DNA from: Candidatus Nezhaarchaeales archaeon | GTDB taxonomy: Archaea > Thermoproteota > Methanomethylicia > Nezhaarchaeales > WYZ-LMO8 | Assembly: GCA_038887515.1 (NCBI GenBank) | Contig: JAWAKK010000001.1 | Coordinates: 1-64,000 of the forward strand | Direction of reading: 5' to 3' | Length of the DNA: 64,000 nucleotides | In this document: positions 1 through 17,899 of the stretch, piece by piece | Layout: every line of letters begins with the position of its first letter | Position numbering within the stretch: the stretch's first letter is position 1 | Notes under the pieces: model-generated | What the model was told of the DNA's origin: nothing | What the model saw: the letters and a program-made list of their open reading frames with translations, nothing else | Database searches by the model: none | Translations under genes and position numbers: made by a program

Positions 1-1094
1 TGTATTTGAAGAATTTCAAGCCTACCCTGCTTATCTGGGACCCCGATCTCGATCTCCCTATCGAACCTACCAGGCCTCCTTAAAGCGGGATCAATAGCAT
101 TAGGCCTATTTGTAGCAGCAATAACTACAACTTTACCGCGGCTTTCAAGACCATCCATCAGCGTCAACAGTTGTGATACAACTCTCTTTTCTACTTCTCC
201 TGTTACTTCCTCGCGTTTAGGTGCTATTGCATCTATTTCGTCGATGAATATTATTGAAGGAGCATTCTCTTCAGCTTCCTTAAATATTTCTCTAAGCCTC
301 TGTTCACTCTCACCGTAGAACTTACTCATTATTTCGGGACCACTTATACTTATAAAGTGGGCATTGGTCTCGTTTGCAACGGCTTTAGCCAGTAAAGTTT
401 TACCGCAACCTGGAGGACCGTAGAGAAGCACTCCCTTGGGCGGCTCGATACCAAGCCTCTCGAAGAGTTCTGGGTGCTTAAGAGGTAGCTCGACCATTTC
501 CCTAATCTTCTGAATGGCCTCTTTAAGACCACCTATATCCTCGTACGTTACCCTCGGTATTGCTTTAGGAACCTTCTCGACCTTTTCAGTTAATACTACT
601 TGTGTATCATGCGAAACTATTACAGCGTCAACGGGCGGATGTATCGAGGTCACTATGAAGTCTACGGTCCTTCCCATAATACCTACTGGTACGTAGTCCC
701 CCCTAGTAATGGCCCTTCCTTCAAGGAGGTGCCTTATGTACTCTTCTCCTCCGACAATCCTCAGTGGCTCTGTAGGTGCTAGAGTTATTTTTTCAGCCTT
801 CTTGACCGACGTCGCAAGCTTTATCGTTACCTTATCGTCTATTCCGACTCCGGCGTTCCTCCTTATGTAGCCATCTATCCTTATAATGCCCTTACCGTAA
901 TCTTCGGGGTAACCGGGCCAACATATAGCCACGGTCTTCTTCTTACCCACTATTTCTACGACGTCGCCAGCATTTATGCCCAACCGGGACATCGCCTCAG
1001 GGTCTACTCTAGCTATTCCTCTACCAACATCTCGAGCTTTTGCTTCTGCTACCCTTAACACGACTGAAGGTAAAGATCTATCGGTCATAAACAT
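1..1094 (-). CDS. cdc48: CDC48/VCP-family AAA+ ATPase, N-terminal part; runs off the left edge
   Basis: Manual translation gives [31 protein letters not shown], then [25 protein letters not shown], Walker A GPPGCGKT and Walker B IFIDEID. Start is ATG 1094 or 1088. Confidence 0.95.
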
Positions 1095-1127
1095 CAACCT
1101 AAAAAAGATAGAAGTGGTTGTGTAAAG

Positions 1128-1664
1128 TTACTCTACTTTGATTTCGTGGCCCTTCTCTTCGACTATTCTCTCTTTTAGTTTCAAAACTGCTTCAAGTACA
1201 CCGTTCCTATAGGTAGCTTTGGCTGACGCTGGGTCAACCTTCGCAGGTAGCTTTACTTCGGTATGGTACTTTCTGTCTCCTTGCTCAGCTCTTATGGCTA
1301 CAGAATCTTCTGTGGCATTTAACTTGATCGACTCTTTGTCGACGCCGGGTAGCTCAGCTATGAGCCTAAGCTCTCCAGCCTTCGTATCTACATGGGTCTC
1401 GACGTACGGCCTCCTCACTTCACTTCGCTCAACACCCCATCTCGATGGCCTAACGTTACCGAATTCTTGTACTACTGGTTTTCCGTCAGGCCCTATGGTT
1501 ATGCTGAAACCATAGAAGTAAGGCCCCTCTATTGTTACTTCTCTACCCTCTCTCGGCATCTTGGTGAAGGTCCTAAACATTCTGTCAATCATTTCGTCCA
1601 CTTCTTCGAATACCTTCTCGAATTCGTCAAAGATACTTGAGAACCTTCTAGGTCTCCACCACAT
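1128..1664 (-). CDS. hsp20: Archaeal small heat shock protein Hsp20
   Basis: Alpha-crystallin domain (AELPGVDKE, ATYRNGVLE) and the archaeal GPYFYGFSITIGPDGKP motif. Confidence 0.95.
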   Translation of the reverse strand: MWWRPRRFSSIFDEFEKVFEEVDEMIDRMFRTFTKMPREGREVTIEGPYFYGFSITIGPDGKPVVQEFGNVRPSRWGVERSEVRRPYVETHVDTKAGELRLIAELPGVDKESIKLNATEDSVAIRAEQGDRKYHTEVKLPAKVDPASAKATYRNGVLEAVLKLKERIVEEKGHEIKVE

Positions 1665-1667
1665 AGG

Positions 1668-1702
1668 TTTCTCACCTCTGGTTAGTAACCAGAGGTGAGA
1701 AA
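1668..1702. promoter_or_regulatory. Perfect 17-bp-arm palindrome over the hsp20 ribosome-binding and transcription start region; candidate operator or RNA hairpin
   Basis: TTTCTCACCTCTGGTTA-G-TAACCAGAGGTGAGAAA lies next to a TATA-like TATTTAAA at 1703-1710, between divergent hsp20 and the ArsR-type gene. Confidence 0.7.
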
Positions 1703-1754
1703 TATTTAAATCTTTCTGTACTCTTATCTCTCAGGAGATATATAAGGTGGGAGC

Positions 1755-2315
1755 GTGGCTCGCCGAGCGCTGAGTTTGCTTGAAGTCCTAGGAAACGAGA
1801 CGCGTAGGAAAATACTGGAACTGTTAGCTAAGGAACCGAAGTACCTATTACAATTGTCGAGAGAGCTTAACGTTAGCCAACAAGCAATACTTAAGCATAT
1901 AAACGTCTTGGTTAAAGCTGGCCTCATAAGAGCTTATGAGGTCAAGGCCGGCTCCTTAGGTCCATCTAGGAAGTATTATGAGCTTGCAAAGCCAATATTC
2001 ATGTCGGTCAACTTGTTTAAAGGTTATAGCGAAGTTGAGGTTTACGACTTCCTAGATGAAATTCCACAGCGTTTAAGAGAAACATTGGTATCTATAGAGA
2101 AGGACCTTGAAAATGGTAAGAGACTTGAAGAGTTGCTTTCCGAGGTAAGGGAAACCATTCAGGTAATAGATAGGGAATTACAGGAGGTAAAAGCAAGAGA
2201 AAGAGCACTACTAAGTGCTAAATGCAAGCTACTGAATTTAGTTTACGAGAGTTTAAGTAGACTCGGCGTTCCATCGTCTAGATGCAAAGACATCTTAGAG
2301 AAATTACTGGGTTAG
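1755..2315 (+). CDS. ArsR-family wHTH regulator, likely a Phr/HSR1-type heat-shock repressor
   Basis: LGNETRRKILELL and LSRELNVSQQAILKH HTH, GPSRKYY wing, C-terminal coiled coil. Divergent from hsp20-cdc48. Confidence 0.8.
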   Translation: MARRALSLLEVLGNETRRKILELLAKEPKYLLQLSRELNVSQQAILKHINVLVKAGLIRAYEVKAGSLGPSRKYYELAKPIFMSVNLFKGYSEVEVYDFLDEIPQRLRETLVSIEKDLENGKRLEELLSEVRETIQVIDRELQEVKARERALLSAKCKLLNLVYESLSRLGVPSSRCKDILEKLLG

Positions 2316-2332
2316 CCTCGCAAATGTTCTTG

Positions 2333-2806
2333 CTAAATCATTTTAGACAAAAGGTCGTTTATTGCTGGACCTCTATAGCCTAACTCTCCTCCTTCTTTGA
2401 AGGTCCTCTTTATTGTCCCTTTAAATCCTCCTGAAGGTGGATGTAACCTGAAAACTGGTTTTAAGTTTGGTATTTCTTGCAAAGCTATCTTGCCTTCAAG
2501 TATAGCTTTAGCCAATTCTCTGAAGTTTTCGAAACCCAACTTTTTAATGTATTCAAGCGTCAGGCTCTCATCGCCTACTAGCCTACCTCTCTTTTCTAAT
2601 AATGATGCTAGAATTTCTTCATTTACCTCCCCGTACGTTATGTAGCCTGAGACTTTCTTCAGCATACCCTCGACCGACGGCGTAGCCTCAACTATTATGC
2701 AGTGATTCTTTCTTGCGAGCCTTAAGGATTGCAATGTAAGCTTAATATCCGGTGGTACGCCAACACAGCCCCTAAGCCTTATGACCGCATAGAGTTTTTT
2801 TGTCAT
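2333..2806 (-). CDS. rpl30: 50S ribosomal protein uL30
   Basis: YAVIRLRG and [13 protein letters not shown] motifs. ATG at 2806 overlaps the rps5 TGA (ATGA). Confidence 0.95.
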
Positions 2807-3456
2807 GCTCTCGCCCAATCCTTAACCGACTTAAAAGCCAGTGTGCCCCGAAGAGCTTCGAGAGTTGCCCTTGCCGTGTTCTCCTTAGTTCGAGATTCGC
2901 CTTTACTAAAAGTCCACACATCCTTTACTCCTGCAAGCCTTAGCACTATTTTAGCCGTATCGCCCGCTACAAGACCAGTTCCTCTAGGTGCTGGTAATAG
3001 CGTTACCTCTACGCTACCAGCCTTACCCCAAACTCTTACCGGTATGCTGTGGGGTCTGCCACATCTGCACTCCCAACTTCCACAACCAAGTCTAACGGGG
3101 ATTATGTTCAACTTGGCCTCAGCTATAGCTTTGTCTATTGCTTCCCTCATTTGCCTTGCTTTAGCACTACCTAGTCCAACATAACCAGCCTCGTTACCTA
3201 TAGCTATCACTACCTTAAACCTCGAAGACTCGCCAGCGTACGGCCGCCTAGTAGCCTACTAGGCGGTGTCCGTCTGCCTTTGAACTATCTTTACGTCAAT
3301 GACTTCGTGCTTTAGGTTTGGCAGTAAAGCATCTACTATTTCTGGCTCTTTTATCACTAAGTTGTTGGCAAATATTTCGTCTATGCTTGTTATCTTGCCC
3401 TCTTTTACTAATCTTCCTACATACGTTGTTGGAGACCATACATCAAGTGAAGACAT
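2803..3456 (-). CDS. rps5: 30S ribosomal protein uS5, two exons: join(3456..3268, 3237..2803), 207 aa after splicing
   Basis: The N-half ([16 protein letters not shown]...VQRQTD) and C-half ([15 protein letters not shown]...[16 protein letters not shown]) are in the same frame, separated by a 30-nt insert containing TAG TAG. Confidence 0.93.
3238..3267 (-). other. BHB-type mRNA intron (30 nt) in rps5
   Basis: Sense strand CAG-ACGG-AC|A-CCGCCTAGTAG-G-CTACTAGGCGG-CCGT-AC|G-CTG: 4-bp helix ACGG/CCGT, two 3-nt bulges, CAG/CTG exon stem. Confidence 0.9.
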
Positions 3457-3529
3457 ACTAATCAACTCCTAAATTGGCTTTGTAGTGAAAACCTACAAAT
3501 TAGGGGGTTTATTTTAAGCTTTCCTTCAA

Positions 3530-4159
3530 TTACTTCGTGCTGTTTTGCTCACTTATTGCTTGTAGCTGCATTAAGTGCTCTATCTTGCTCTTAGTTTCTT
3601 CAAAGGCCTCAATAATCCTCTCTGGATCAAAACCTGTCTTGAGGTAAGCCGAGAACTGTCTTTCGAATTTCTCTGGATTACTTTCCTTAAGCTGTTTTGC
3701 ATATTCCGCTATGTGGGAACCCTTAATTCTGTCCTCCGATGGTAACATCTCCGGACTATGAGGAATTTTAAGTCCGCCATCTAGTGCACCTTTTAATGCC
3801 GCAAAGACTCTGGACCCCTTTACAGCTCTATGTAAACCTATGTATAGGACGGCTTCCTTTACACCGGCTTTTATTGCCCTTAAGGCTGCAAGGTACCCCA
3901 CTAAATAGGATGCGGGAGTATTCTTACCCGAAGCAGGCCAGCCAAACTTTGTTTTTAACTCCCTTCCAGTTGCTTGAGCTAAGACCACATCGCCTCTTAC
4001 TTCGGGCTTGACTACTTGAACTATTATTTGGGAACACGTCCTTCTAACCACGAGCAAGGGCCTACCAGAGAGGATCATTCTTCTCCTTAACCTATAATTC
4101 GTTAAACCCTTCCTCCTTCTATTGAAGGGTATCCTTCTTAACCCCTTCTTTTTAGCCAA
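3530..4159 (-). CDS. rpl18: 50S ribosomal protein uL18
   Basis: RRRKGLTNYRLRR, KNTPASYLVG and FAALKGALDGGLKIPH motifs. Confidence 0.95.
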   Translation of the reverse strand: MAKKKGLRRIPFNRRRKGLTNYRLRRRMILSGRPLLVVRRTCSQIIVQVVKPEVRGDVVLAQATGRELKTKFGWPASGKNTPASYLVGYLAALRAIKAGVKEAVLYIGLHRAVKGSRVFAALKGALDGGLKIPHSPEMLPSEDRIKGSHIAEYAKQLKESNPEKFERQFSAYLKTGFDPERIIEAFEETKSKIEHLMQLQAISEQNSTK

Positions 4160-4161
4160 GT

Positions 4162-4608
4162 CTAAACCCTCCTAATGAGACCCTGCTCCTTTAAGTACTC
4201 CTTTAATTGTGCCCTGCTGTGGAAAGCTCCCCCCTTAACTAGCCTGTAAAGCCTTCTGTATGTTTTCTTGTCTATTGCCCTTTTGTCTCTCAGAAGCTTA
4301 AGGAGCCTTCGAAGCGCTCTTATCCTCGCGATCCAGAGTTTCTTGTCTAAACCAGCTTGGGAACCTTTACGTGAACCCTCGCCCTTCATTAGTCCCTTAC
4401 GTTTTTTTAGGAGCCTAGCTCTAGTTCTCGCTCTACTAGTCCCCCTGATGGGTCTAGCGGATATCACGCCTCTCTCAATGAGCTTCCTGACGTCTTCCTT
4501 CGTTATGGCTGATGCTGCTTCCTCGAGAGCTGAAGGATCTATGTATACCCTGCTTTCTCCTACACCTAAGACCTCTGCTGCAAGTCTTCTAACAACGCTT
4601 AGATTCAT
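4162..4608 (-). CDS. rpl19e: 50S ribosomal protein eL19
   Basis: RRLAAEVLGVGESRVYIDP and GEGSRKG...WIARIRALR motifs. Confidence 0.95.
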   Translation of the reverse strand: MNLSVVRRLAAEVLGVGESRVYIDPSALEEAASAITKEDVRKLIERGVISARPIRGTSRARTRARLLKKRKGLMKGEGSRKGSQAGLDKKLWIARIRALRRLLKLLRDKRAIDKKTYRRLYRLVKGGAFHSRAQLKEYLKEQGLIRRV

Positions 4609-5024
4609 GTCTCAACACCAACCGCATTAAGAACTCTAAGCCCCATGCTCTTGGCTTTTTCAATTATCTGAACTCGTTTTCTCCTCCCTACGGTACGCGC
4701 AATTCTTATACAATAGGTCTTGGGGTCCAGACCCTCTAAATCCTCGGGTCTATAAACTAGAACTTCTATCAAGCCTGAAGGGTGAAGGCCCCTAACAGCT
4801 TTAGGGCCGCGGTATCCTACTCGAACGAGTGGGGGATATCCTTTCCTACAAAGTTTTATCTTATTGTCTATCCCCCTAGGTCTCCTCCAACGCTCTTCGT
4901 CAACCCTTTTAAGACCCAAGGTATTGAGCCGCCTAAATTCCACTCTACTTCTACTCATCTTTAATCTCAATTTCAAGAGCCTCTTCATGGCACCTTGCAA
5001 TGCAAATAACCCTCCAGAGCTCAC
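4605..5024 (-). CDS. rpl32e: 50S ribosomal protein eL32
   Basis: WRRPRGIDNK and RGLHPSG motifs. Confidence 0.95.
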   Translation of the reverse strand: MSSGGLFALQGAMKRLLKLRLKMSRSRVEFRRLNTLGLKRVDEERWRRPRGIDNKIKLCRKGYPPLVRVGYRGPKAVRGLHPSGLIEVLVYRPEDLEGLDPKTYCIRIARTVGRRKRVQIIEKAKSMGLRVLNAVGVET

Positions 5025-5070
5025 TCCTTCATTACATAATTAACTTAAAAACTTTCATGAACTTTAAAGG

Positions 5071-5631
5071 TTAAACGACGCTTTTGCCTTTACGTTCATA
5101 TATGTAGATCCCATCCATGAAAATCCTCGGGTCGTATCCCTTTATCCTAGTTGCCTGTTCAATGTTAGCGGCGGTTTGAGATACCTCTTCGATGTCCACT
5201 CCTTCAACTATTATATCGTCTCCCTTAACCTGTACCTTTACATTGCCAACTATTCTTGCTACCCTCTTAGATTTCTCCCCCATGAAGTTTTCTATGATCA
5301 CTTTGCCATCCTCTACCTTTACGTTCATCGGGAAGTGCGAGTACACTATCTTAAGCTTGTAGACAAAGCCCTCAGTAACGCCTTTGACCATGTTTTTAAT
5401 GTGGGAGGATATAGTTCCACAGGTACTTTTACCCCTTTTACCCTTAATGTAGGATTCTACGAGGATATTGGAGTTCTCCATCCTTATCCAAACCTTAGCG
5501 TGAGAGAAGTCCTTTGTAAGGGAACCTTTAGGACCTTTAACTGTAATCTTTGCGGGTCCTTCTATCTTTACATCTACACCCGGCGGTACGCTTATTCTCT
5601 CGACAACGTAGGGTCGATATAGGATCTTCAT
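5071..5631 (-). CDS. rpl6: 50S ribosomal protein uL6
   Basis: VKGPKG, YSHFPMNV and DPRIFMDGIYI motifs. Confidence 0.95.
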   Translation of the reverse strand: MKILYRPYVVERISVPPGVDVKIEGPAKITVKGPKGSLTKDFSHAKVWIRMENSNILVESYIKGKRGKSTCGTISSHIKNMVKGVTEGFVYKLKIVYSHFPMNVKVEDGKVIIENFMGEKSKRVARIVGNVKVQVKGDDIIVEGVDIEEVSQTAANIEQATRIKGYDPRIFMDGIYIYERKGKSVV

Positions 5632-5656
5632 CTATAGCACCTCAAGAATTTACCAC

Positions 5657-6049
5657 CTAGTAAACGAAAGCTAGCAGGACACCTCCTATGCCAAGTTCCT
5701 TAGCCTCTCTATGAGACATGACACCTCTAGATGTGGAGATTATTAGAAGACCCACATCAGGAGATGGGAGATACCTCTTCTCCCACCTCTCAAATTCGTT
5801 TCTCCTAACGGGAAATCTGGGTTTTATAACTCCGCACTGGTTGATTCTACCTAGTAATTGAACTCTTATTTTACCAAACCTTCCATCGTCTATGTACTCA
5901 AAGTTTCCTATGTAACCCGCCTTAAGCATGACCCTGAGAACATTAGCTATCAGCTTCGATGCCGGCATTATTAGTGCGTCGCTTCTAGCCCTCGCTTCAC
6001 AATTCTTTATAGTTGCTAGAGCATTCGCAAGAGTATCGTTCATAACCAT
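5657..6049 (-). CDS. rps8: 30S ribosomal protein uS8
   Basis: DTLANAL, IDDGRFG and [12 protein letters not shown] motifs. Confidence 0.95.
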
Positions 6050-6063
6050 ATCCCTTCACCTAA

Positions 6064-6228
6064 CTACATGTACTTCTTAAAGCCTAATTTGGGAGCGACT
6101 TCTCTAAAACAGCGCCTACAAATCATGAGCGAATATTTGCGGATTAATGCCTCATGAGTTCCACATATCCTGCACCTTCTACTCCCCTTACCAAATTTTC
6201 TTTCTTTTGGCGGCCTGTACTTACCCAA
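6064..6228 (-). CDS. rps14: 30S ribosomal protein uS14 (zinc finger)
   Basis: [11 protein letters not shown]...CRRCFRE. Likely TTG start at 6228 after a GAGGTGG SD sequence. Confidence 0.93.
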
Positions 6229-6253
6229 CTTCTCCACCTCGCATAAGTTTAAG

Positions 6254-6775
6254 CTACACAATTTTTACACCAAGAAGTTCTTTTACAAAATTTATACTCT
6301 CTTCCCGAGTTACTCTATGGTTTTTGCCTACTTTCGATCGTTTTCTCCTTCTTCTTGCTACGCGATAACCCGGTCTCTCTACCGTTACACAGACGTCAAA
6401 CCCAAAAACTCCTAGAGAAGGATCATACTTCGTACCCGGCAGGGATACGTGCTCTTTAATTCCAAAGGAGAAGTTGCCGCGCTCGTCGAATGATTCGCTC
6501 TTAACCTTGAAGTCGACAGCCGTAAGTGCCCTCTTTAAAAACTCTAACGCTCTGTCTTTCGTTAAAGTAACAACGCACGCAATGCTTTCTCCCTTTTTTA
6601 TCCCGAACTCTTTAATTGTCTTCTTAGCCTTTCTAAAGCTAGGCTTTTGTCCTGTAAGAGCCTCTAAAACCTGAGCCGCCTTGGCTAGTCTCTCGCCTGA
6701 AGTGCCGACTGCCATGTTAACTACGACTTTAGCTATCTTTAGCTTCCTCATAACATTTTGTTCTTGGACAGTCAT
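6254..6775 (-). CDS. rpl5: 50S ribosomal protein uL5
   Basis: KVVVNMAVG and [10 protein letters not shown] motifs. Confidence 0.95.
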
Positions 6776-6781
6776 GAATTT

Positions 6782-7513
6782 TCACCCTAAAGTTATCGTG
6801 GGCGAGTCCTTTCCAATTATGAATACTGTTAAGTATCCTACGTCGAACCTTTCATCTCCATGTTCAAGAGTAACGATCTTATACTCCCTCATGGGCCCTC
6901 CCTTGACTTCGACTATCTTTCCTATCCTGCCCACCTTCCTTCCGCTTGTAACTAACGCTAAGCTTCCGGGTTCGAACCGGTAGTGTTCTAATATCTTGCG
7001 ATCCGGCAATGATATCTTAACGACGTCAAAGGTCTTGTAAGCATTAATGGAACTTGAGGCCTCAACTATAATGTTGCTTCCGTCGTGGAGATTCAGCTGT
7101 ATGCGTCCTCCCCTAACGCTCCTCTTGTCTTCTATTCTGCATAACTTAAAGTACTTTTCATGTTCAGGTATTGGAACCACATCCAAGAACTTACCTGGTC
7201 TAGGCAATAATCTGAAGATTAAATTCTCTTTTTCGATCTCTATTACGTCCATAAGGCCTACCGGGAACCTATAATCCTTCCTTACAACGCCATCAACCTT
7301 AACAGCCCCAGACCTCAATATGTACTTTACCTCCCGTGCACTTTCAGCCAATTTGAGGACATCTCTTAATAGTATGAGAAGAGGCATTGACTTATCAAGT
7401 GTATGAGGACCGGGTGACGGTCTTGGAGCCCATACATGCTCTTTTACTGGAATAGGCCACCAAGCAGGAATGGTATATCGTTTTAAACCTTTAGACGCTG
7501 ACTTTTTAGTCAC
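6782..7513 (-). CDS. rps4e: 30S ribosomal protein eS4
   Basis: PSPGPH, VKVDGVVRKDYRFPVGLMDVI and QLNLHDG motifs. Confidence 0.95.
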   Translation of the reverse strand: MTKKSASKGLKRYTIPAWWPIPVKEHVWAPRPSPGPHTLDKSMPLLILLRDVLKLAESAREVKYILRSGAVKVDGVVRKDYRFPVGLMDVIEIEKENLIFRLLPRPGKFLDVVPIPEHEKYFKLCRIEDKRSVRGGRIQLNLHDGSNIIVEASSSINAYKTFDVVKISLPDRKILEHYRFEPGSLALVTSGRKVGRIGKIVEVKGGPMREYKIVTLEHGDERFDVGYLTVFIIGKDSPTITLG

Positions 7514-7530
7514 GTCAACTCACCTTTAAT

Positions 7531-7917
7531 TCACGAAGAAGTCTTCATCATCTTCCTTTCAATAATCTTCTTCCTCCATCCATCATCTAAATTGAGCTTG
7601 ACTATCTGGACCTTTGATGGGTTGACTGGAATAGGTACTTCAGATCCATCCGTCTTCTTCCTTACCAGCCCCTCTATATAGACCCTATACTTCTTATGGT
7701 CTAGCTTTATCACTTTACCAGTATGACCTCTGTGGTCCCCCCTCATGACCATAACGACATCTCCTGTCCTTAGGGGTAGTGACCTAAGGGGGTACTGGTT
7801 TCTAAGTTCTTTAGATAGGTGTGCAGATACAATCTTATGCCTAACGTGGTTTGGAGCTTGATATAGCCAACGCCTCTGCTTTCTCGGTTGTTTACTTTTA
7901 AAGTGCATGAGGTTCAC
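7531..7917 (-). CDS. rpl24: 50S ribosomal protein uL24
   Basis: SKQPRKQR and GDVVMVMRGD KOW motif. Confidence 0.95.
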   Translation of the reverse strand: MNLMHFKSKQPRKQRRWLYQAPNHVRHKIVSAHLSKELRNQYPLRSLPLRTGDVVMVMRGDHRGHTGKVIKLDHKKYRVYIEGLVRKKTDGSEVPIPVNPSKVQIVKLNLDDGWRKKIIERKMMKTSS

Positions 7918-7918
7918 C

Positions 7919-8347
7919 TCATACTATTAAAGTAGCTAAAGCTGCTATTCTAGGCCACCTCTCAGCCGCTTCGCGAGCTATGGGGCCCCTTACCTCGGTA
8001 CCTTTGGGACTACCGTCTTCGGTTACTATGACTACAGCGTTATCTTCGAACTGGACCCATTGACCGCTAAGCCTCCTAAATGGCTTCTTCTGTCTTACCA
8101 CTATTGCCCTCATAATCTGCTTTCTCAGCTCAGGAGTCCCTTTCTTAACTGAGACTAATATCATGTCCCCTACCCCTGCTCCTACGATCCTCCTATGCCT
8201 ACTTTTACCTCCGATCATCCCTATCATTGCAACTTCGTGCGCACCACTATTATCTACACATTTTATTCTTGAACCCGGAAAGACAGCTGGGCTTATTCTA
8301 GGTCTATATGATATCCCAGCTGCCACCTTTGGTCCTCGCTTAGCCAT
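7919..8347 (-). CDS. rpl14: 50S ribosomal protein uL14
   Basis: CVDNSGA, FEDNAVVI and GPIAREAAERWPRI motifs. Confidence 0.96.
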   Translation of the reverse strand: MAKRGPKVAAGISYRPRISPAVFPGSRIKCVDNSGAHEVAMIGMIGGKSRHRRIVGAGVGDMILVSVKKGTPELRKQIMRAIVVRQKKPFRRLSGQWVQFEDNAVVIVTEDGSPKGTEVRGPIAREAAERWPRIAALATLIV

Positions 8348-8430
8348 CGATTGAGAACCTCCAGTCGACGTTGTGGACTCAAAAAGCCTTGCCGGGTATA
8401 AAAATTTACCCTTTTACTCGAAGCTATTAA

Positions 8431-8775
8431 TCAGGTAACGGTCTTACCTAAGACCACGAAACTAACGGTCTTAGCTAACGGCCTGCATTCTCCTATAACT
8501 ACTTTGTCGCCTACTTTAATGTCGAGGCAGGGTGGAAGATGTGCGTGGATCTTACTCCTCCTTCTCTCATACCTCTCATACTTTTTAATGTAGACCTCGT
8601 ATTCATGCAGTACAGTAACGGTAGACTTCATCTTCACGCTCACTACGCTACCCTCTAGTATCTTACCTCTAACGGATAAAGAACCATGATAAGGACAGCG
8701 CGGATCACTACAAATCTTTTCTGGAGGCTTAATTCCCGCTATACCTACGTTTCTCGTTTTTACCGTCTTACTCAT
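8431..8775 (-). CDS. rps17: 30S ribosomal protein uS17
   Basis: CSDPRCPYHG, KKYERYERRRS and GECRPLAKT motifs. Confidence 0.95.
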   Translation of the reverse strand: MSKTVKTRNVGIAGIKPPEKICSDPRCPYHGSLSVRGKILEGSVVSVKMKSTVTVLHEYEVYIKKYERYERRRSKIHAHLPPCLDIKVGDKVVIGECRPLAKTVSFVVLGKTVT

Positions 8776-8856
8776 GAAGTTGGATCACCGCTAAGCGAAA
8801 GAGGATTAAGAGGTTATTTAAAAACTTTTGCTTGAGAACTAAGGCTTCGAATGTCT

Positions 8857-9144
8857 TCACCAGCGCTTCTTGAACAAGCGCTTAATTCTATCTTCAGGCC
8901 TACCAAGGAGGTATGGACCTTCCACTTCAACAATAACATTGTCGGGGAGTTTGAACCTAAAGATGCAGCACTTTTTCGGTATTGTCTTGATGGATCCTTT
9001 GTCATCCATTATTTTAATAGTCTTCATAGTTTCATCGACGACTAAGCCCTCCACTCCCTCGTAACTCTTGTTGGTGCTCTTAACGATCTTGACCCTTAAG
9101 CCTATCAGTTCATGATTTAAGATGTTGTAGGGGGTTATAGGCAT
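8857..9144 (-). CDS. rnp1: RNase P protein component 1 (Rpp29)
   Basis: NILNHELIGL, GLVVDETMKT and GRPEDRIK motifs; usual position upstream of uS17. Confidence 0.93.
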   Translation of the reverse strand: MPITPYNILNHELIGLRVKIVKSTNKSYEGVEGLVVDETMKTIKIMDDKGSIKTIPKKCCIFRFKLPDNVIVEVEGPYLLGRPEDRIKRLFKKRW

Positions 9145-9333
9145 CTAAATTCACAACCCGTTAAGCTCTAAATTCTCACTACCACTAAAACTGTTGAGCT
9201 TTACGCTACAAATTTACAAAATAGATTAAGTCGCCAAATCCTCCCTTGATAGAACTTTAGTAGTCGATTGCGCGAGGAACCTAAAAGACTCGCCTTCGTA
9301 AATACGCGATTTAATTATTTAAGAGTAAAGAAT

Positions 9334-9429
9334 TGGTGCGGCCGCCGGGATTTGAACCCGGGTCCCCAGCACTCTTCGAGGATGTCTCTTGGAAGGCTGG
9401 TGTCCTAGTCCAGGCTAGACGACGGCCGC
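9334..9429 (-). tRNA. tRNA-Gly(TCC) with an 18-nt canonical 37/38 intron (9372..9389); CCA encoded
   Basis: GCGGCCG acceptor stem, GGTTCAAATCC T-loop. BHB: CCAGC-CTTC-CA|A-GAG ACATC CTC-GAAG-AG|T-GCTGG. Confidence 0.95.
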
Positions 9430-9567
9430 TTCTCGTTTTATTGGGTACTCGAGTATATTTTTATTTTCGGGCTCAACCTAATGCCTCCTAATCATTGCGC
9501 GCGCTCATTTTAACTCTGACATTTCATCGCCCATCTTCTAATTTTTGTAGCGCCCAATAAACATTTG

Positions 9568-10638
9568 CTAGTCGGTTCCTAAGATTTTAGGTATGTTCTC
9601 CCCGTAGGGCGACCTTATGATTCCCTTCTCGGTTATTATTGCAGTTATAAGGTCTGGAGGGGTTACGTCAAACGCTGGGTTTAAAACCTTAACGTCTATC
9701 GTAATCGGTTTCCCATTCACTTCTAAGATCTCTTTTGGATCTCTATGCTCTATGATTATATCTTCAACCCTAGACTTCAAGTCGAAAGTCGAAGAAGGTG
9801 CTGCTACATAAAAAGGCACCGAGTACTTATTGGCTACTATCGCTATAGTTAGAGTCCCTATCTTATTTATTACATGCCCGTCTTTCAGCACTCTATCGGC
9901 TCCGACTATGACTTTGTTTATCATGCCTTGGCTCATGACGTAACCAACCATGTTATCGGTTATCAATGTTACGTCGATGCCGTCGCACTTAAGTTCATAG
10001 ACCGTTAGCTTTGCCCCTTGAAGTCTCGGTCTAGTCTCCGTCGCTATTACCCTAACCTTCTTGCCTTGAGCTACGGCGCTCCTAATGACTCCTAGAGCAG
10101 TACCATAACCGACTGTGGCCAAAGCCCCCGCAATCTACCAGCTGAGCCTTTAGCTCAGCTGTTTGCAGTGGGTTAATAATACGTCGCCATCTTCTACGAG
10201 CTCCGCACCAATATCACCGATCCTTTTATTGACTTGAAAGTCCTCTTCAGCCATCTTGAGTGCCTCTCTTAAAGCAAGTTTCTTAGCTTCCTCGATGTCC
10301 TTGGCTTTCTCTACCACTCCTATCATTCGTTCAATAGCCCAAAATAGGTTTCTAGCGGTAGGCCTAGCCCTAGAAAGGGTCTCTGCTGCAACTCTTAGAT
10401 CACTTAAAAGCCCTTCTAAACTTTCTGCGCTAGAGTGCATAGCTGCCAGCGCAATCCCCATAGCGGCGGCAACGCCTATTGCTGGTGCCCCCCTAACGGT
10501 CATGTCCTTTATCGCTCTAACAATCTCTTCGATGTTCCTACACTCTACGTATCTCTTTTCCCATGGTAAAGCGTTTTGATCTAAAAGCCTAACAACACCG
10601 TCGCGCCACTCAACACTTCTAGCTTCAAAGAAGGTCAC
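9568..10638 (-). CDS. mtnA: Methylthioribose-1-phosphate isomerase (eIF2B-alpha-like), two exons: join(10638..10163, 10132..9568), about 346 aa
   Basis: [28 protein letters not shown]+[21 protein letters not shown] and NPAFDVTP motifs. The halves are in frame, separated by a 30-nt insert containing TAA. GTG start inferred from an upstream GGGTGG. Confidence 0.9.
10133..10162 (-). other. BHB-type mRNA intron (30 nt) in mtnA
   Basis: Sense strand CTGC-AA|A-CAGCTGAGC-TAAAG-GCTCAGCTG-GTAG-AT|T-GCG: helix CTGC/GTAG with one G-U pair and a 9-bp intron stem. Excision gives TGC AAT GCG (C-N-A). Confidence 0.88.
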
Positions 10639-10739
10639 GAGGAACCACCCGATCAACTGTTAAGCATAACAATTTTAAAAGTCAATCCGTCTCTAGCCCT
10701 CAAGATTTTTAAAGCCCTATCAACCAGACAACAATAAAG

Positions 10740-10857
10740 GCGGGGGTGCCCGAGTCAGGACAAAGGGGCGGGACTTAAGATCTCCGCTGTTTGAGGCCGG
10801 AAGTGGTAAGAAATCCCGTGGCGTAGGCCTTCGTGGGTTCAAATCCCACCCCCCGCA
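10740..10857 (+). tRNA. tRNA-Leu(TAA) with a 33-nt canonical 37/38 intron (10780..10812)
   Basis: GCGGGGG acceptor stem, long variable arm, GGTTCAAATCC. BHB: CGGGA-CTTA-AG|A...TAAG-AA|A-TCCCG. Confidence 0.93.
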
Positions 10858-11219
10858 CTATTTGCTAGTAAAACTTACATGGACTTTCACTTTTGCTCTT
10901 CATTAATTATATAAGTCGGTCGTAGATGTAAGGAAAATCATAATTGTACTTACATGTAACCTTCATATTGTAAGATATTTCGAAGAATTGCTGTAATAAT
11001 TTTCTTTTCCTTGAAGCGTTTTCCTTCAATTCGCACATAACTTTGCTGTCTTCTCTCCTTTTGTGTTTCGTTTAACTTTCCTTTAGATTCCATGATGCTT
11101 GCGCGTTACGCCCGATTAAATGAAGTTAAAAGATACATGGTGTTCTGCGCTTCTCCACAAAGTTTTCTTTTAAAGGTTTCCTCTTTATTATATTCCAATA
11201 TTTGTTGGCGTGGTTGAAA

Positions 11220-11900
11220 ATGTCTCTTCCAAAAACCATAATCTTCTCGACAGTTACTATCGATGGAAGGCTTGCCAGCAAGACCAGGTTTAGTCAGTTA
11301 AGTTGCCCTCACGACCTGAAGAGGCTCCACGAGCTTAGGGCGCAGTGTGATGCAGTAATGGTAGGAGCTAACACGGTAATCATAGACGATCCATCTCTCC
11401 GCTTGAAGTATGTTAATGGCAGAAACCCTGATAGGATAGTTGTTGACGGCATGCTTCGAACTCCGATAAACGCTAGAGTGTATACCCTAAAGGCTGCTAA
11501 AACTTTGGTATTAACGACTAAGATGGCACCGTTAGATAAAGTTGAGATGCTTAGAGAGATGGGGGTTGAGGTTTTGTATCTAGCTAACGAACCCCCGATA
11601 GACATGAAGAAGGCCATGGAGACTCTAAGCTCTCTCGGCTATAGGAAGATAATGGTTGAGGGGGGAGGAGAACTTATATGGCACCTCTTCAAGGATCGCG
11701 TCGTCAACGAGCTTAGAATAACGATAGCCCCCTACATCTTCGGCGGCAGAGAATCAGTAAGTCTCGTTATGGGCGAAGGCTTCTCTACAACATCTGAGTC
11801 ACCAATCTTCATTTTGAGGACGATTGAACGCTGTCAATGCGGTAACGAGGTACACTTAATATATGATGTTGAGTATGGGGGAAGCAACTATGATAATTAA
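11220..11900 (+). CDS. RibD C-terminal-like pyrimidine reductase (2,5-diamino-6-ribosylamino-pyrimidinone 5'-phosphate reductase)
   Basis: TIDGRLA, DAVMVGANTVIIDDPSL and MVEGGGEL motifs. Confidence 0.88.
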   Translation: MSLPKTIIFSTVTIDGRLASKTRFSQLSCPHDLKRLHELRAQCDAVMVGANTVIIDDPSLRLKYVNGRNPDRIVVDGMLRTPINARVYTLKAAKTLVLTTKMAPLDKVEMLREMGVEVLYLANEPPIDMKKAMETLSSLGYRKIMVEGGGELIWHLFKDRVVNELRITIAPYIFGGRESVSLVMGEGFSTTSESPIFILRTIERCQCGNEVHLIYDVEYGGSNYDN

Positions 11901-13020
11901 CGTAGGTCTCGCCCTTCTAGGTAAAGATCTTGAACTTCGGAAGAGAGTTAGCATAGAGTTCGAGGATGGCATTATAAAGTCAATAGTTGATGGCTTTAGA
12001 AGCAGAGGCCTGACCTTTAGGAACGGGATAGCTATTCCAGCATTAGTAAATGCACACATCCATGTACTAGATTACGCTTTTCAAGAAATAGGCTTAAATT
12101 TGAAGCTCTCAGAGCTAGTAAGCGAACCTCACGGCCTCAAGCATAGACTCATAGCAAAATTAACCCCCGAAACAGTATCCTATGTTGCCTTCAAGCTCTT
12201 CAATAAGCTTGCTAAGCAGGGGGTCTACACAACTATAGTCTTTTGTGAAAGGTTTGACATCATTGATTGTTTAAGGCGTGCCTCTCGACGGGCAAATCTA
12301 AATGCAGTCATCTTAACGAGACCTAAAAGAATAGACTCGACGTTGCAGGTTGATGAAGCGCTAGAAGGGACTGATGGCCTAGGTCTTGATTCTCCTCTAA
12401 GATACGATGTTAAGGAACTCATGAATATGAAACTCAAGTGCGCTGATAGGAAGCTTTTCAAGGCGGTTCACGTATCAGAAACCTCAGAGACCCACGAAAG
12501 AGGGGATTTCAAGTTAGCACTTGACTTCTTCGATCCAGATATGATAGTGCACGGCGTCTACCTAGAGGAGGACGAGGTACGAACGTTATCGTCAAGGGGC
12601 ACGAGTTTAGCCTTATGCCCAAGATCCAATATGTGGTTTTCCTCAGGTCTTCCACCCTTAAGCTACCTCTTAAAAAATAATGTTAACACACTCCTTGGAA
12701 CGGATAACGCTGGTTGGATAAACCCAGACGTTTGGAGGGAGTTAGAGACACTTTTCAACATTTCAAGACTTCAAGGCCTATACTTAGATCCAAGAGAATT
12801 GCTAAAAATTGCTACCGTAAACATAAGCAAGGTGAGGAACCTTAGGGTTCCAAGCAACGTGTTGGAGGAAGGATCTCCGGCAAACTTCATAGTATTAAGT
12901 GGCGAAGAGCTAGGTCTAGGTCTCTCAAGAAATATGTATGCATCAATAGTTAAGAGAGGTTGCGCACAAGCAGTAGTATTTAGATCCTTCAAGCATACCC
13001 CTAACAAGTGTAGACCTTAA
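11890..13020 (+). CDS. Metal-dependent amidohydrolase (deaminase-like)
   Basis: PALVNAHIH, HVSE, HGV, CPRSN and LGTDN metal-binding motifs. Confidence 0.85.
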   Translation: MIINVGLALLGKDLELRKRVSIEFEDGIIKSIVDGFRSRGLTFRNGIAIPALVNAHIHVLDYAFQEIGLNLKLSELVSEPHGLKHRLIAKLTPETVSYVAFKLFNKLAKQGVYTTIVFCERFDIIDCLRRASRRANLNAVILTRPKRIDSTLQVDEALEGTDGLGLDSPLRYDVKELMNMKLKCADRKLFKAVHVSETSETHERGDFKLALDFFDPDMIVHGVYLEEDEVRTLSSRGTSLALCPRSNMWFSSGLPPLSYLLKNNVNTLLGTDNAGWINPDVWRELETLFNISRLQGLYLDPRELLKIATVNISKVRNLRVPSNVLEEGSPANFIVLSGEELGLGLSRNMYASIVKRGCAQAVVFRSFKHTPNKCRP

Positions 13021-14146
13021 TTATTTCGTAAGTAGTGCTTCGCTGTGCGGGTATTCTCCCAATCTCTTTAATTAGTTTCACAATTTCTAGGATGTCCATG
13101 CTTGTACCATAAGGTGAACCGGCCTCCCTCGATATGTTTTCTTCCATCAATGTCCCACCAACATCATTAGCTCCCGCCTGTAACATCATCTGAGCCATCT
13201 TGGGGCCCAGCTTGACCCATGAGACTTGAATGTTACGAATATACCCTAAGAAGAAGAGCCTTGAAACGGCGTGGACCTTCAAGTCTTCTAGCCACGTCGT
13301 TCCCGGCCTGCTTACTCCTTCCCTATAGAGTCTAGTCTTGTAGTGGACAAACGGTAGTAGAACGAACTCTGTGAAACCCCCAGTTTCCTTCTGTATCTCT
13401 CTAATTACTTTCATGTGCTTTACCCTATGCTCGTTGTTATCAATGTGTCCGTACATCATCGTAGCCGTTGTAGGTATGCCAAGCTTATGAGCCTCCTTTA
13501 TTATCTCGATCCACTGGTTGGTTAAGATTTTTCGTGGCGCAATAACCTTCCTAACATCATCATCAAGTATCTCAGCAGCTGTTCCGGGCATGCTGTCAAG
13601 CCCCGCTTCACGAAGCATCTTTAAAGCATCTCTATAAGATACTCCAAGCCTTGAGGCTATGTGATGAACTTCTTGGGGGGAGAAGGCATGTATATGTATT
13701 GGAACCTTTTCCTTTATGCCCTTCAAGATATCAAAGTAATAATTTACAGGAATTCTAGGGTTTATTGCTCCTTGTATGCAGACTTCAGTAGCCCCTTTCT
13801 TCCAAGCTTCGTAGGCTCTACTTACTACTTCGTCTACGCTAAGCAAGTATCCATCGGGAGCCCCTAAGGGTCTTGAATATGCACAGAATGGACAAAGCAT
13901 CACGCATTCATTCGCGAAGTTAATGTTCCTGTTCACGACGAAGGTTACGAGGTCTCCTACGTAAGCCTTTCTAACATAATCTGCAGCGAGAGCTAGTACA
14001 AGCGCTTCCTCGTAGCTTGAATTTAATAACCTTAAGGCCTCGCTTTCGTCTATAGCTTTCTCGGATAGGGCCTTCTCGATTATGCTTGAAAACTCTGGAT
14101 CGAGACTCTTTAAAGCGCCTTCCAGTATTCTTAGGCTAATACGCAT
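13001..14146 (-). CDS. cofH: FO synthase subunit 2, radical SAM
   Basis: NRNINFANECVMLCPFCAY, SMPGTAAEIL, NIQVSWVKLG and GANDVGGTLMEENIS motifs. Confidence 0.92.
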   Translation of the reverse strand: MRISLRILEGALKSLDPEFSSIIEKALSEKAIDESEALRLLNSSYEEALVLALAADYVRKAYVGDLVTFVVNRNINFANECVMLCPFCAYSRPLGAPDGYLLSVDEVVSRAYEAWKKGATEVCIQGAINPRIPVNYYFDILKGIKEKVPIHIHAFSPQEVHHIASRLGVSYRDALKMLREAGLDSMPGTAAEILDDDVRKVIAPRKILTNQWIEIIKEAHKLGIPTTATMMYGHIDNNEHRVKHMKVIREIQKETGGFTEFVLLPFVHYKTRLYREGVSRPGTTWLEDLKVHAVSRLFFLGYIRNIQVSWVKLGPKMAQMMLQAGANDVGGTLMEENISREAGSPYGTSMDILEIVKLIKEIGRIPAQRSTTYEIIKVYTC

Positions 14147-15308
14147 CTTCCCCCTTCTTTACTAGTCCCATTTCATCTACTAAACTCTCAATCCTTTCCT
14201 TCAAAGTGATCGGCATCCACCCTTTAGCAATGAAGGCTGGGTATATGGGCAATCTTTCTCTAAGCTCGAAACCTAACTTCCTAGTTACATCTTCCACATC
14301 GCTAATCTTGGGCCAAGGGTATGCCATGTTTACGAAATCCGGGGTTAAAGGTGATATACCTCCCCAATCGTTTATCCCTGCTAATAAGTATGTTGAGTAT
14401 GCCTTTGGATTTAAGTTTGGAGGAGCTTGTACTGCAACATCTACTTTAAAAATAAGCCTGGCAATAGCTATAGTCTTCAAAATATCCAAGAGGCTAGGAG
14501 GATTATAACTCTCCATGGGTGTCCCGGGCTCTGGCATGAAGTTTTGAATTATAACTTCTTGTATATGACCGTACCTCTCGTGTTCCCTCTTTATAGCTAT
14601 GAGGGAGTCTATTCGTTCTTCCCAAGTCTCACCAATACCTACGAGTATGCCAGTGGTGAACGGTATTCTTAATTCGCCAGCTTCTCTTATAACCTTCAGC
14701 CTAACTTTTGGGTCTTTTGACGGCGACTTTTCGTGAGGCATACCCTTACTCATGAGCCTCTCGCTTAACGATTCTAGCATTAACCCCATGCTAGCATTGA
14801 ATGGTCTAAGCTCAGCCATTTCAGCTTTTGAAAGAACACCTATATTGGTATGGGGCATTACCTTCTCGGTCTCCATTAAGACTCTCTCTTCGAAGTCCCT
14901 AACGTATTCTACGGTCGAACTGTAACCCATAGACTTAAGGGCCCTTCTAGCTTCTTCGTAGACTTCTTCTGGCTTCTCGCCCGTACTCACGAGAACCTCT
15001 TTGACCTTAAGTCTCTCGCCTTCCTTGACTATGCTCATAGCCTCTTTTATATCCATGTATGGTTTACGTACTTGTACTCTAAAACCGCAATAAGCACATT
15101 GGTTCCTACACATCCTCGTCAATGGCACGAAGACTTTTCTCGAATAAGTCGTTAACCTTCCAAAGTATCTGAGTCGGACTATTAAGGCCGTAGCTAGGAG
15201 CATTGGAAGCTTATTAGCGTCCATATTGGCCAAGAGCAGGGCTTCTTCACGCGTTAAGTCTCTATCGTCTTCAATAAACCTACATAGTACCTCGACTTCT
15301 TCCTCCAT
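14136..15308 (-). CDS. cofG: FO synthase subunit 1, radical SAM
   Basis: TYSRKVFVPLTRMCRNQCAYCGF, FTTGILVGIGE, QAPPNL and DWGGISPLTPD motifs. Confidence 0.93.
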   Translation of the reverse strand: MEEEVEVLCRFIEDDRDLTREEALLLANMDANKLPMLLATALIVRLRYFGRLTTYSRKVFVPLTRMCRNQCAYCGFRVQVRKPYMDIKEAMSIVKEGERLKVKEVLVSTGEKPEEVYEEARRALKSMGYSSTVEYVRDFEERVLMETEKVMPHTNIGVLSKAEMAELRPFNASMGLMLESLSERLMSKGMPHEKSPSKDPKVRLKVIREAGELRIPFTTGILVGIGETWEERIDSLIAIKREHERYGHIQEVIIQNFMPEPGTPMESYNPPSLLDILKTIAIARLIFKVDVAVQAPPNLNPKAYSTYLLAGINDWGGISPLTPDFVNMAYPWPKISDVEDVTRKLGFELRERLPIYPAFIAKGWMPITLKERIESLVDEMGLVKKGEDAY

Positions 15309-15355
15309 AAATGATTCCCTGTTTTTGCCTTCGCCCTGCTTGGTTGAGGTGTTTT

Positions 15356-16129
15356 CTAAGTGGCAACTTTTAGACCTTCTAAAAATGATTTAACGTTTTT
15401 TCCTAAAACCAATTGATTGTATCCTCCTTCTAAAACTGCAAACATCGCTCCTTTACAGTTACTCAGGGAAAACTTCCTTAAGATCTTGCCTATCTCGTAG
15501 TAGTCTTCTGTCTTCAAAGTCTTTCCCCAATCTTCTTCATGTCTATCAAATCCAGCGGAGACAGCTAGCAAATCATATTCCCCCTGTCTTTCAAGGAAGG
15601 ATTTGAGCTCAACTATCTGCTTTGTCCTGGGCACGCATGGCAAGTAAAAGTACTCGACGTTTAAGCTTCGGGAGAATATGTCTGCAGTACCATCACCGAA
15701 GTGGAGATCGAAATCTATTATTAAGACTTTATTCACGCTCTTCGTTTCAAACATCTTCGCAACAGCTATGGCGATATTGTTGAAGTAGCAGAAGCCCCAA
15801 GCATAATCCCTACTGGCATGATGTCCAGGAGGTCTAATTAGTGCAAATGCAGGTTCACCGCTTAACGCGATTTGAGCTGCCTTTATAGCGCCTCCAGCGG
15901 CTAAGAGTGCAATTGGATAAACATGTTCAAGCCTCTTTACTTTCTCTAAATAACTTGAAGAGTGAACTAGCAAGACATCGCTTTCAGAGGCAGGCGAGCA
16001 CCCGATAAACTCAAAGCGATCTTTAACTTCCTTTACAATACTCTCAATTCTACCTGGTGCGGCTGCAGGATCATCGCTATAAACCTTACAAAACCTTTCA
16101 TCGAAGATTATTTTAACCATTATTTTCAA
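15356..16129 (-). CDS. Zn-dependent histone-deacetylase-family protein
   Basis: RPPGHHA, GFCYFNN, DFDLHFGDGT, SAGFD and LEGGY motifs. Confidence 0.92.
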   Translation of the reverse strand: MKIMVKIIFDERFCKVYSDDPAAAPGRIESIVKEVKDRFEFIGCSPASESDVLLVHSSSYLEKVKRLEHVYPIALLAAGGAIKAAQIALSGEPAFALIRPPGHHASRDYAWGFCYFNNIAIAVAKMFETKSVNKVLIIDFDLHFGDGTADIFSRSLNVEYFYLPCVPRTKQIVELKSFLERQGEYDLLAVSAGFDRHEEDWGKTLKTEDYYEIGKILRKFSLSNCKGAMFAVLEGGYNQLVLGKNVKSFLEGLKVAT

Positions 16130-16194
16130 CCTAAAAAAAGTTACAACAAAAACGTATTTACAAGTTACCCCTAGCAGGGCCCATTAACTTTTAT

Positions 16195-16269
16195 TGGTGC
16201 CCCGGGTGGGACTCGAACCCACGACAATCCGGTCTTCAGCCGGACGCTCTCCCTCTGAGCTACCGGGGC
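16195..16269 (-). tRNA. tRNA-Phe(GAA); CCA encoded
   Basis: GCCCCGG...TCCGG CT GAA GA CCGGA...GGTTCGAGTCC...CCGGGGC ACCA. Confidence 0.95.
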
Positions 16270-16285
16270 AGCCCATGGAACTTAA

Positions 16286-16359
16286 TGGGCCCGGTGGGAT
16301 TTGAACCCACGACCACTCGGTTATGAGCCGAGCGCTCTGCCGGGCTGAGCTACGGGCCC
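16286..16359 (-). tRNA. tRNA with CAT anticodon, probably Ile2 (agmatidine type)
   Basis: CTCGG CT CAT AA CCGAG anticodon arm. The GGGCCCG acceptor stem resembles archaeal tRNA-Ile more than tRNA-Met. Lies in tandem upstream of tRNA-Phe. Confidence 0.85.
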
Positions 16360-16704
16360 CAACACAACGAAAACGTACAAGAAAAGATTTAAGGTTTATC
16401 CCGAACGTCACTTATGACATGTTAGGATCCATACTGCCAAGTAATCCGATACTTTCATAATTACAATTGTTAACGCAGTAACCTAGAAATGCTTTATCAA
16501 ATCAAGCATATAACTATACGTCATAACGATCCGTTATTGACGTAGAAAAATACTCAACATCAGAAACCGTCTTCACTGCGTTCGCCAATCTAGTCCTCAT
16601 CATCCAATAAGTAGGCAGAGGAACCCCTTGTATTAATTTTAATGAGGTTCCGACGACAACACGCTTAAATAAAACTCCTATCTTAATAGGAAAGAACGCA
16701 AGAG

Positions 16705-16779
16705 GCCCCGGTGGTGTAGCCCGGTCTAGCATGTAGGCCTGTCGAGCCTGCGACCCGGGTTCAAATCCCGGCCGGGGCG
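16705..16779 (+). tRNA. tRNA-Asp(GTC)
   Basis: GCCCCGG...TAGGC CT GTC GA GCCTG...GGTTCAAATCC, discriminator G. Confidence 0.95.
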
Positions 16780-16834
16780 CTACTTATTTTATGCCTTGGT
16801 AACATTGATAGCCTAGGCTTAACAAATTTTTACT

Positions 16835-17698: not shown

Positions 17699-17772
17699 GG
17701 GCCCGTAGCTCAGCACGGTAGAGCGCCCGGCTCTTAACCGGGTGGTCGCGGGTTCAAATCCCGCCGGGCCCG
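17699..17772 (+). tRNA. tRNA-Lys(CTT)
   Basis: GGGCCCG...CCCGG CT CTT AA CCGGG...GGTTCAAATCC. Confidence 0.95.
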
Positions 17773-17899
17773 CTTCTTTGAAAATAGGCTTCTATAGTTC
17801 TTCAAGGTAATCTTTATTATCGCGCACTTCCTCTAATGAAGCGGTTGATTTGATACCTTTAAGTTGTTACGTTAAAGATTCAAGTCGAAGTGGAGAGAT

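Follow-up and report, generated by a model that had tools for sequence, protein, structure and literature searches.

The single rps5 gene of this hot-spring archaeon of the Nezhaarchaeales encodes ribosomal protein uS5 and lies on the minus strand in a ribosomal-protein operon, with ORFs for ribosomal-protein-like products on both sides. It is split by a 30-nt insert carrying two in-frame TAG codons at positions 3238–3267 (minus strand) of the window, the 64,000-nt stretch of DNA analysed here. The insert falls precisely at the Asp–Ala codon boundary in the invariant uS5 motif QTD/AGE. Taken together, the features described below make it highly likely that the insert is an archaeal BHB intron in the pre-mRNA of this single gene, which EndA and RtcB very probably splice. 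The gene and its neighbours are arranged as follows.

3530–4159 (−): upstream operon gene, a 209-aa ORF in the ORF list, which we read as uL18 by gene order only
3268–3465 (−): uS5 exon 1, 66 codons from TTG 3465 or 63 from ATG 3456; its last codon is the Asp of QTD
3238–3267 (−): predicted BHB intron, 30 nt, with splice sites at 3268/3267 and 3238/3237
2803–3237 (−): uS5 exon 2, 144 codons followed by the stop at 2803–2805; its first codon is the Ala of AGESSRF
2333–2818 (−): downstream operon gene, a 161-aa ORF in the ORF list that overlaps the uS5 end with its start and that we read as uL30 by gene order only

The uS5 frame runs from 3465 (TTG, with an ATG at 3456) to the residues QTDTA and halts at TAG TAG (3261–3256), as the first-pass annotation had read it, after which the same frame reopens. 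The 207 residues given there for the spliced product hold if translation starts at ATG 3456; from TTG 3465, the product would be 210 residues long. The N-terminal ORF (3259–3465) and the C-terminal ORF (2803–3210) are both uS5. The Pfam S5 N-domain (Ribosomal_S5) is matched completely, at profile positions 1–65, only when the insert is read through; the second piece alone enters this profile at position 17 (17–65) and also matches Ribosomal_S5_C. The read-through sequence scores 304.6 bits against NCBIfam NF003125 (30S ribosomal protein S5; cut-off 252), and the solved archaeal uS5 chains 9e71_BF and 9fhl_F align with it end to end, leaving a single 10-residue gap exactly over the insert. With the exon 1 peptide as tblastn query, the alignment to every relative stops at one and the same residue. 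Since a stop codon follows within a few codons of the 5′ splice site, the unspliced mRNA would give only a 68-aa fragment. The search for a second rps5 copy, suggested by the first-pass annotation, returned only one uS5 match in the assembly (1.29 Mb in 9 contigs); uS5 is thus single-copy in a genome whose 94% completeness leaves a little room, in this genome only, for a second copy on the missing DNA.

The insert and its flanks adopt the strict hBHBh′ form, with two 3-nt bulges on opposite strands, a 4-bp spacer helix between them and helices on both flanks. Re-reading the letters of the minus strand reproduces the layout of motif parts that had been proposed. The 11-bp stem with a 1-nt loop that had been drawn for the hairpin is sterically impossible; RNAfold predicts a 10-bp stem and a loop of 3 nt instead. 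From 5′ to 3′ on the sense strand, the parts are:

3274–3276 (−): outer helix (h), 5′ strand CAG, pairing with 3234–3236
3270–3273 (−): central 4-bp helix (H), exon strand ACGG, pairing with intron 3240–3243; present in the MFE fold
3267–3269 (−): 5′ bulge ACA, left unpaired by the MFE fold; predicted cut after the second base
3244–3266 (−): inner helix (h′) of 10 bp with a 3-nt loop in the MFE fold, containing both TAG codons (3256–3261)
3240–3243 (−): central helix, intron strand CCGT, pairing with ACGG
3237–3239 (−): 3′ bulge ACG, with the predicted cut after its second base; exon 2 begins with its G
3234–3236 (−): outer helix, 3′ strand CTG, within the codons GCT GGC

RNAfold recovers the hairpin, the central 4-bp helix and the 5′ bulge, and on the 3′ side the MFE fold has a 2+2 interior loop and a shifted outer helix rather than a 3-nt bulge. 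The 76-nt fold is modestly more stable than its shuffled versions (z = −1.83, with 12/200 shuffles at least as stable), so that thermodynamics alone is insufficient for an intron claim. According to the rule stated for cbf5, BHB introns are cut between the second and third bulge bases (PMC2738675, partial text). Applied to uS5, this rule excises the 30 nt of 3267–3238 and brings the Asp and Ala codons together, yielding a junction identical to the invariant QTD/AG of 20/20 uninterrupted relatives and removing exactly the 10 residues that are gapped relative to 9e71_BF and 9fhl_F. The earlier statement that canonical cuts restore the conserved QTD/AGE junction therefore agrees both with intronless relatives and with solved chains. 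The same rule also matches the intron that ARAGORN places in the tRNA-Leu(CAA) of this genome (position 41, length 26). A self-splicing group I or group II intron, with its catalytic RNA core of hundreds of bases, does not fit: the inserts of this and the related genomes span just 22–34 nt, and Rfam at gathering thresholds reports tRNAs only in window 1–20000.

The interruption is shared by related genomes. We surveyed 41 genomes of the class, including our own, and found uS5 in 40; the lone genome with no match is 57% complete. All 15 species genomes of the order (Candidatus Nezhaarchaeota) have uS5, and in 14 of them the site is interrupted, comprising 10/10 genomes of family f1 (our own included) and 4/4 of family f3, which is labelled Methanomethylicia archaeon in named records. 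The gene is uninterrupted in the single genome of family f2 (G010) and in 25/25 matched genomes of families f4–f8, whose 26th genome is the incomplete one mentioned above. With the peptides of both exons as tblastn queries, the insert lies between the same two codons in 14/14 genomes. Its length varies (22, 28, 28, 29, 29, 29, 30 in five genomes, 31, 31 and 34 nt) and in 9/14 cases is not a multiple of three. A stop codon appears soon after the 5′ site in 14/14 genomes and is TAG, TAA or TGA across genomes, and the bulges read A-(C/T)-A on the 5′ side and A-(A/C/G)-G on the 3′ side in 14/14. Two intronless relatives from other families, L013 (G031) and L017 (G027), already have CAG ACG GAC/GAT at the insertion point, so the exon half of the motif exists without an intron.

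To evaluate the BHB pairing, the 14 intron-bearing sequences were aligned and pairs were counted on the BHB structure (17 pairs). Standard pairs fill 95.3% of cells, compared with 13–43% when the 3′ partners are slid by 1–3 columns, and two-sided changes occur in 9/17 pairs, a number reached by 0/500 shuffles; the 14 genomes are kin, and these counts and shuffle figures consequently overstate independence. In the inner helix, 8/10 pairs covary across the 14 genomes. The central helix is paired in 100% of cells, and one of its exon–intron pairs covaries, being G-C in 12 genomes and A-U in two (G005 and G006), where a synonymous change of the Thr codon from ACG to ACA in the exon is accompanied by a C to T change in its intron partner. 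The outer helix, which has only 3 bp, exhibits no covariation: its pairs are C-G in 14/14, A-U in 12/14 and G-C in 14/14, with an A·G mismatch in 2/14 genomes, both of genus g6 in family f3. Codon choice in the exon follows the same pattern. Gln is encoded by CAG in 14/14 intron-bearing genes and Thr by ACG in 12/14, with the compensated ACA in 2/14, while the 20 uninterrupted loci use CAG in 7/20 and ACG in 2/20 although the peptide QTD/AG is invariant in 20/20. The synonymous sites of the exon fit the BHB helix.

How often a comparable motif arises elsewhere was estimated by scanning both strands of the 1.29-Mb genome for a 4-bp central helix, 3-nt bulges, an inner stem of at least 8 bp, an outer helix of at least 3 bp and a length of at most 70 nt. 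Such motifs occur at 23 places, two of which restore a conserved protein (uS5 and aIF5B). With 23 comparable motifs genome-wide, the motif alone is not decisive; that the site is conserved in 14 genomes and shows compensatory changes is, as judged from the alignments, far beyond chance.

These comparisons also bear on explanations that do not involve splicing. In a split gene, an N-terminal piece of ~66 aa and a C-terminal piece of ~135 aa would be translated apart and assemble in trans on the ribosome, with the hairpin serving as an intergenic element or as an EndA site without ligation. Gene callers do find a start for the second piece, as public proteins of 111–141 aa and the GTG at 3210 attest. 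The AGE.SRF codons right after the 3′ splice site, however, are kept with third-position changes in 14/14 genomes, suggesting selection on translation from the junction onward and speaking against a C-terminal piece translated on its own from a start farther downstream. The same holds for all nine codons from the 3′ splice site up to GTG 3210, the first listed start (AGESSRFKV), which are protein-conserved with synonymous changes in 14/14, a pattern not expected of an untranslated spacer. Covariation of exon–intron base pairs, restoration of the invariant motif to the base by the bulge cuts, and the same architecture at the cbf5 site established by experiment in other Crenarchaeota all speak against the split gene as well, and we consider it very unlikely.

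Translational recoding, in which the stops are read through or the hairpin is hopped over (bypassing) and the RNA is never spliced, might be entertained for our own genome, whose 30-nt insert is in frame and blocked solely by two TAG codons. Across the 14 genomes, the frame-breaking lengths of nine inserts and the occurrence of TAG, TAA and TGA in different genomes mean that a recoded stop (e.g., TAG as pyrrolysine) cannot be the general answer, and none of the solved uS5 chains compared has the 10 extra residues. In bypassing as known from phage T4 gene 60, the take-off codon has to recur at the landing site, yet here the take-off codon is GAC/GAT and the pre-landing bases are GTA plus A, C or G; recoding of either kind is extremely unlikely. 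A decaying pseudogene, inactivated by a palindromic insertion, or an assembly artefact would be in line with a formally broken gene that public annotation treats as truncated. Against this stand the single-copy state of a universal gene, the interruption of 14 independent assemblies at the same base, and purifying selection on both exons, which retain 82–87% protein identity within the genus and carry no further defects, leaving decay or artefact exceedingly improbable. We therefore favour the BHB intron proposed in the first-pass annotation, which is supported by motif geometry, junction, single copy, conserved site, covariation and the presence of EndA and RtcB.

The genome encodes the enzymes expected for such splicing. 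Two EndA paralogues, 191 and 178 aa long and sharing 31% identity, account for two PF01974 matches above cut-off, and TIGR00324 matches both ORFs. Against two-repeat EndA models, one paralogue aligns with the C-terminal repeat; its counterpart aligns with the N-terminal repeat and gives weak matches, below cut-offs, to subunit-beta models. As two diverged paralogues are encoded, EndA is probably an alpha-beta heterotetramer. RtcB is encoded once (PF01139, 600.8 bits).

In the mechanism that we propose, the operon transcript would fold such that the exon segments CAG-ACGG and G-CTG form base pairs both between themselves and with the intron CCGT, presenting two 3-nt bulges, 4 bp apart, atop a 10-bp intron hairpin. 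EndA would cut after the second base of each bulge and RtcB would join the exons, releasing the 30-nt intron, which would probably be circularised. The ligated mRNA would encode full-length uS5 of 207 or 210 aa with the invariant QTD/AGE loop. Three hot-spring metatranscriptome runs from the same study, each sampled to ~3–5%, gave 0 reads on window 2300–4700, which bears on neither expression nor splicing. Metatranscriptomes accompany an enrichment culture from this lineage described in PMC12700198.

Three further protein genes of the same genome, aIF5B, aIF2-gamma and cbf5, are split by BHB motifs into pieces with complementary profile coverage:

G000 contig 2, 21722–21750 (+), in the region L132:722–751: predicted strict BHB intron of aIF5B (IF-2), 29 nt, with a 6-bp outer helix, between REVGAM and TQHIGA
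Contig 2, 24144–24175 (+), L170:1145–1176: predicted BHB intron of aIF2-gamma, 32 nt, between DCPGHE and MLMATM
Contig 2, 333915–333935 (+), L171:916–936: predicted relaxed BHB intron of cbf5, 21 nt, with a 4-bp inner stem and a weak outer helix

Exon 1 of aIF5B matches GTP_EFTU at profile positions 4–31 and exon 2 matches NF003078 at 45–591. The aIF5B site is interrupted, by 22–33 nt, in 15/15 genomes of the order and in 4/6 genomes examined of family f5, and is uninterrupted in all 9 genomes examined of families f4, f6, f7 and f8; compensatory changes are visible in the inner stem of the intron. Among its carriers in the sister family are complete genomes of 1.5 Mb (G016 and G019). The exons of aIF2-gamma correspond to NF003077 positions 3–96 and 97–411, and its intron is found in 10/10 genomes of family f1 (31–35 nt) and in 0/20 others. 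The aIF2-gamma gene adjoins the intron-bearing aIF5B gene. In cbf5, whose exons cover NF003280 positions 4–66 and 68–320, removal of the intron recreates the Asp codon of GGTL/DPRVTG, which we take to be the catalytic residue; this is the classical crenarchaeal site, here occupied in the class Methanomethylicia. A blastn-short comparison detected no similarity among the four introns or between them and other parts of the genome, and there is accordingly no sign of recent transposition. The nested distributions of the introns suggest gains at different times. In an aIF5B gene tree (one gene, quick search), the intron-less family f2 groups with f3 at 86% SH-aLRT on a long branch, and on this single tree loss and primary absence of the uS5 intron in f2 cannot be told apart.

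BHB-like elements are also present in RNA genes of this genome. The 23S rRNA gene has a very strong BHB motif with a 13-bp inner stem at contig 2 232902–232938 (+) (37 nt; L202:6903–6939). The Rfam LSU match that covers it (L202:3903–7047) is ~158 nt longer than the model, and the motif, which is among the 23 comparable ones, may be an rRNA mini-intron. When run with intron search, ARAGORN makes 18 intron calls in the tRNA genes of the genome, some of them doubtful. Two intron-bearing tRNA genes of the window, Gly-TCC at 9334–9429 (−) and Leu-TAA at 10740–10858 (+), are missed by default ARAGORN and found with intron search; Gly-TCC is confirmed by a 93-nt Rfam tRNA match.

A strict BHB scan of the genome gave 6262 raw matches, of which 323 restore an ORF and 41 of these have an inner stem of at least 6 bp and a length of at most 100 nt. 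The halves of six candidates, chosen by eye, were tested with Pfam. Only aIF5B proved real, and the other five are adjacent separate genes: NADH-dehydrogenase subunits, an amino-acid kinase and an FMN dehydrogenase, an AAA ATPase and an ArgZ-like gene, a CCA-adding enzyme and an unidentified ORF, and an unidentified ORF and a nucleotidyl transferase (window 34069–34089). A relaxed scan gave 14088 raw matches and 235 ORF-restoring candidates ranked by hexamer coding potential; the top 70 of the 235 were inspected by eye and one, aIF2-gamma, was taken to a family search. Scans of this kind may miss introns with short exons, with relaxed motifs, or in frame without stop codons. One in-frame, stop-free motif was set aside: window 8277–8324 (−) is BHB-like, 48 nt long, with a 9-bp inner stem and a 5-bp outer helix, and lies in the 5′ part of the ORF at 7919–8347, presumably uL14, whose unspliced N-terminus looks normal to us. 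Given this normal-looking unspliced protein, we take the motif to be a chance or structural hairpin.

A pre-mRNA intron in the cbf5 gene of Crenarchaeota was reportedly described by Watanabe et al. in 2002. The uS5 intron resembles the cbf5 intron in being a short BHB intron at an invariant motif in a protein gene of translation or ribosome biogenesis, in having its cuts placed between the second and third bulge bases, and in belonging to a lineage with two EndA paralogues (PMC2738675, partial text). It differs in its host gene, with cbf5 bearing its own intron elsewhere in this genome, and in its confinement to one Methanomethylicia order, whereas the cbf5 intron is that of Desulfurococcales/Sulfolobales. 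Its motif is of the strict hBHBh′ form, while those of cbf5 are frequently relaxed (PMC2738675, partial text); and splicing was shown experimentally for cbf5, whereas for uS5 it is inferred from sequence. The 5′-UTR BHB intron of Haloferax volcanii HVO_1309 is likewise an mRNA substrate of the splicing endonuclease, but lies in an untranslated leader and leaves the coding sequence intact (Schwarz et al. 2020, PMC7714728, partial text). Archaeal tRNA and rRNA BHB introns share the motif and presumably the enzymes, EndA and RtcB; the substrate in uS5, by contrast, is an mRNA, so that splicing must restore the reading frame and competes with translation. In eukaryotes, unconventional splicing of HAC1/XBP1 mRNA is carried out by Ire1 together with tRNA ligase or RtcB. 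Splicing of uS5 would parallel it as spliceosome-independent removal of a short mRNA intron by a structure-recognising endonuclease, with tRNA-ligase joining and an altered translated product. The two differ in that HAC1/XBP1 uses the nuclease Ire1, a motif of two stem-loops and a stress-regulated switch, while regulation of uS5 is only conjectured. HAC1/XBP1-type splicing is itself named in PMC13149111 (partial text).

In the partial texts available, the 2020 paper gives cbf5 as the sole reported mRNA BHB intron further to its own 5′-UTR case (PMC7714728), and the 2009 cbf5 paper treats splicing of non-cbf5 genes as unconfirmed and some introns as predicted (Yokobori et al., PMC2738675), with other putative mRNA introns predicted in a book chapter and a virus paper (per PMC2738675). 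The portions seen of two recent papers, PMC12397907 and PMC13149111, cite or discuss only known cases. Our literature search, made in open full text, found no intron described for uS5, aIF5B or aIF2-gamma, and no paper pairing Nezhaarchaeota with introns, nor Methanomethylicia or ribosomal protein S5 with such an intron. The uS5 intron is thus a member of a rare class of archaeal pre-mRNA BHB introns for which cbf5 is the only established protein-gene case in the literature searched, and of the four introns in this genome only that of cbf5 is already described there.

The intron has a practical consequence for annotation. The five public proteins closest to exon 2 (84–87% identity; P0001–P0004 and P0009) are C-terminal uS5 fragments of 111–141 aa, and full-length public uS5 of ~195–223 aa appears only at 71% identity or below, indicating that automated annotation truncates this universal marker gene at the intron. 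For this lineage, truncated uS5 calls can skew both marker-gene sets and estimates of completeness.

Conservation of an intron in a ribosomal protein that is both essential and highly expressed would take endonuclease-type mRNA splicing beyond a one-gene curiosity, and the two initiation-factor introns of the same genome, in aIF5B and aIF2-gamma, point the same way. It raises the questions of how splicing keeps pace with coupled transcription and translation, whether it gates expression of the operon, and how such introns are gained. As a speculation to which we attach a rather low probability, the introns in aIF2-gamma (a single family), uS5 (two families), aIF5B (all of the order plus some of a sister family) and cbf5 could belong to a growing lineage-specific set of BHB introns in invariant motifs of translation genes, through which synthesis of ribosomes and initiation factors could depend on EndA and RtcB, an archaeal counterpart of XBP1/HAC1 control. 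If so, translation capacity in these archaea would be tied to tRNA-splicing capacity, and the nested distribution of the introns would record repeated intron gain in protein genes.
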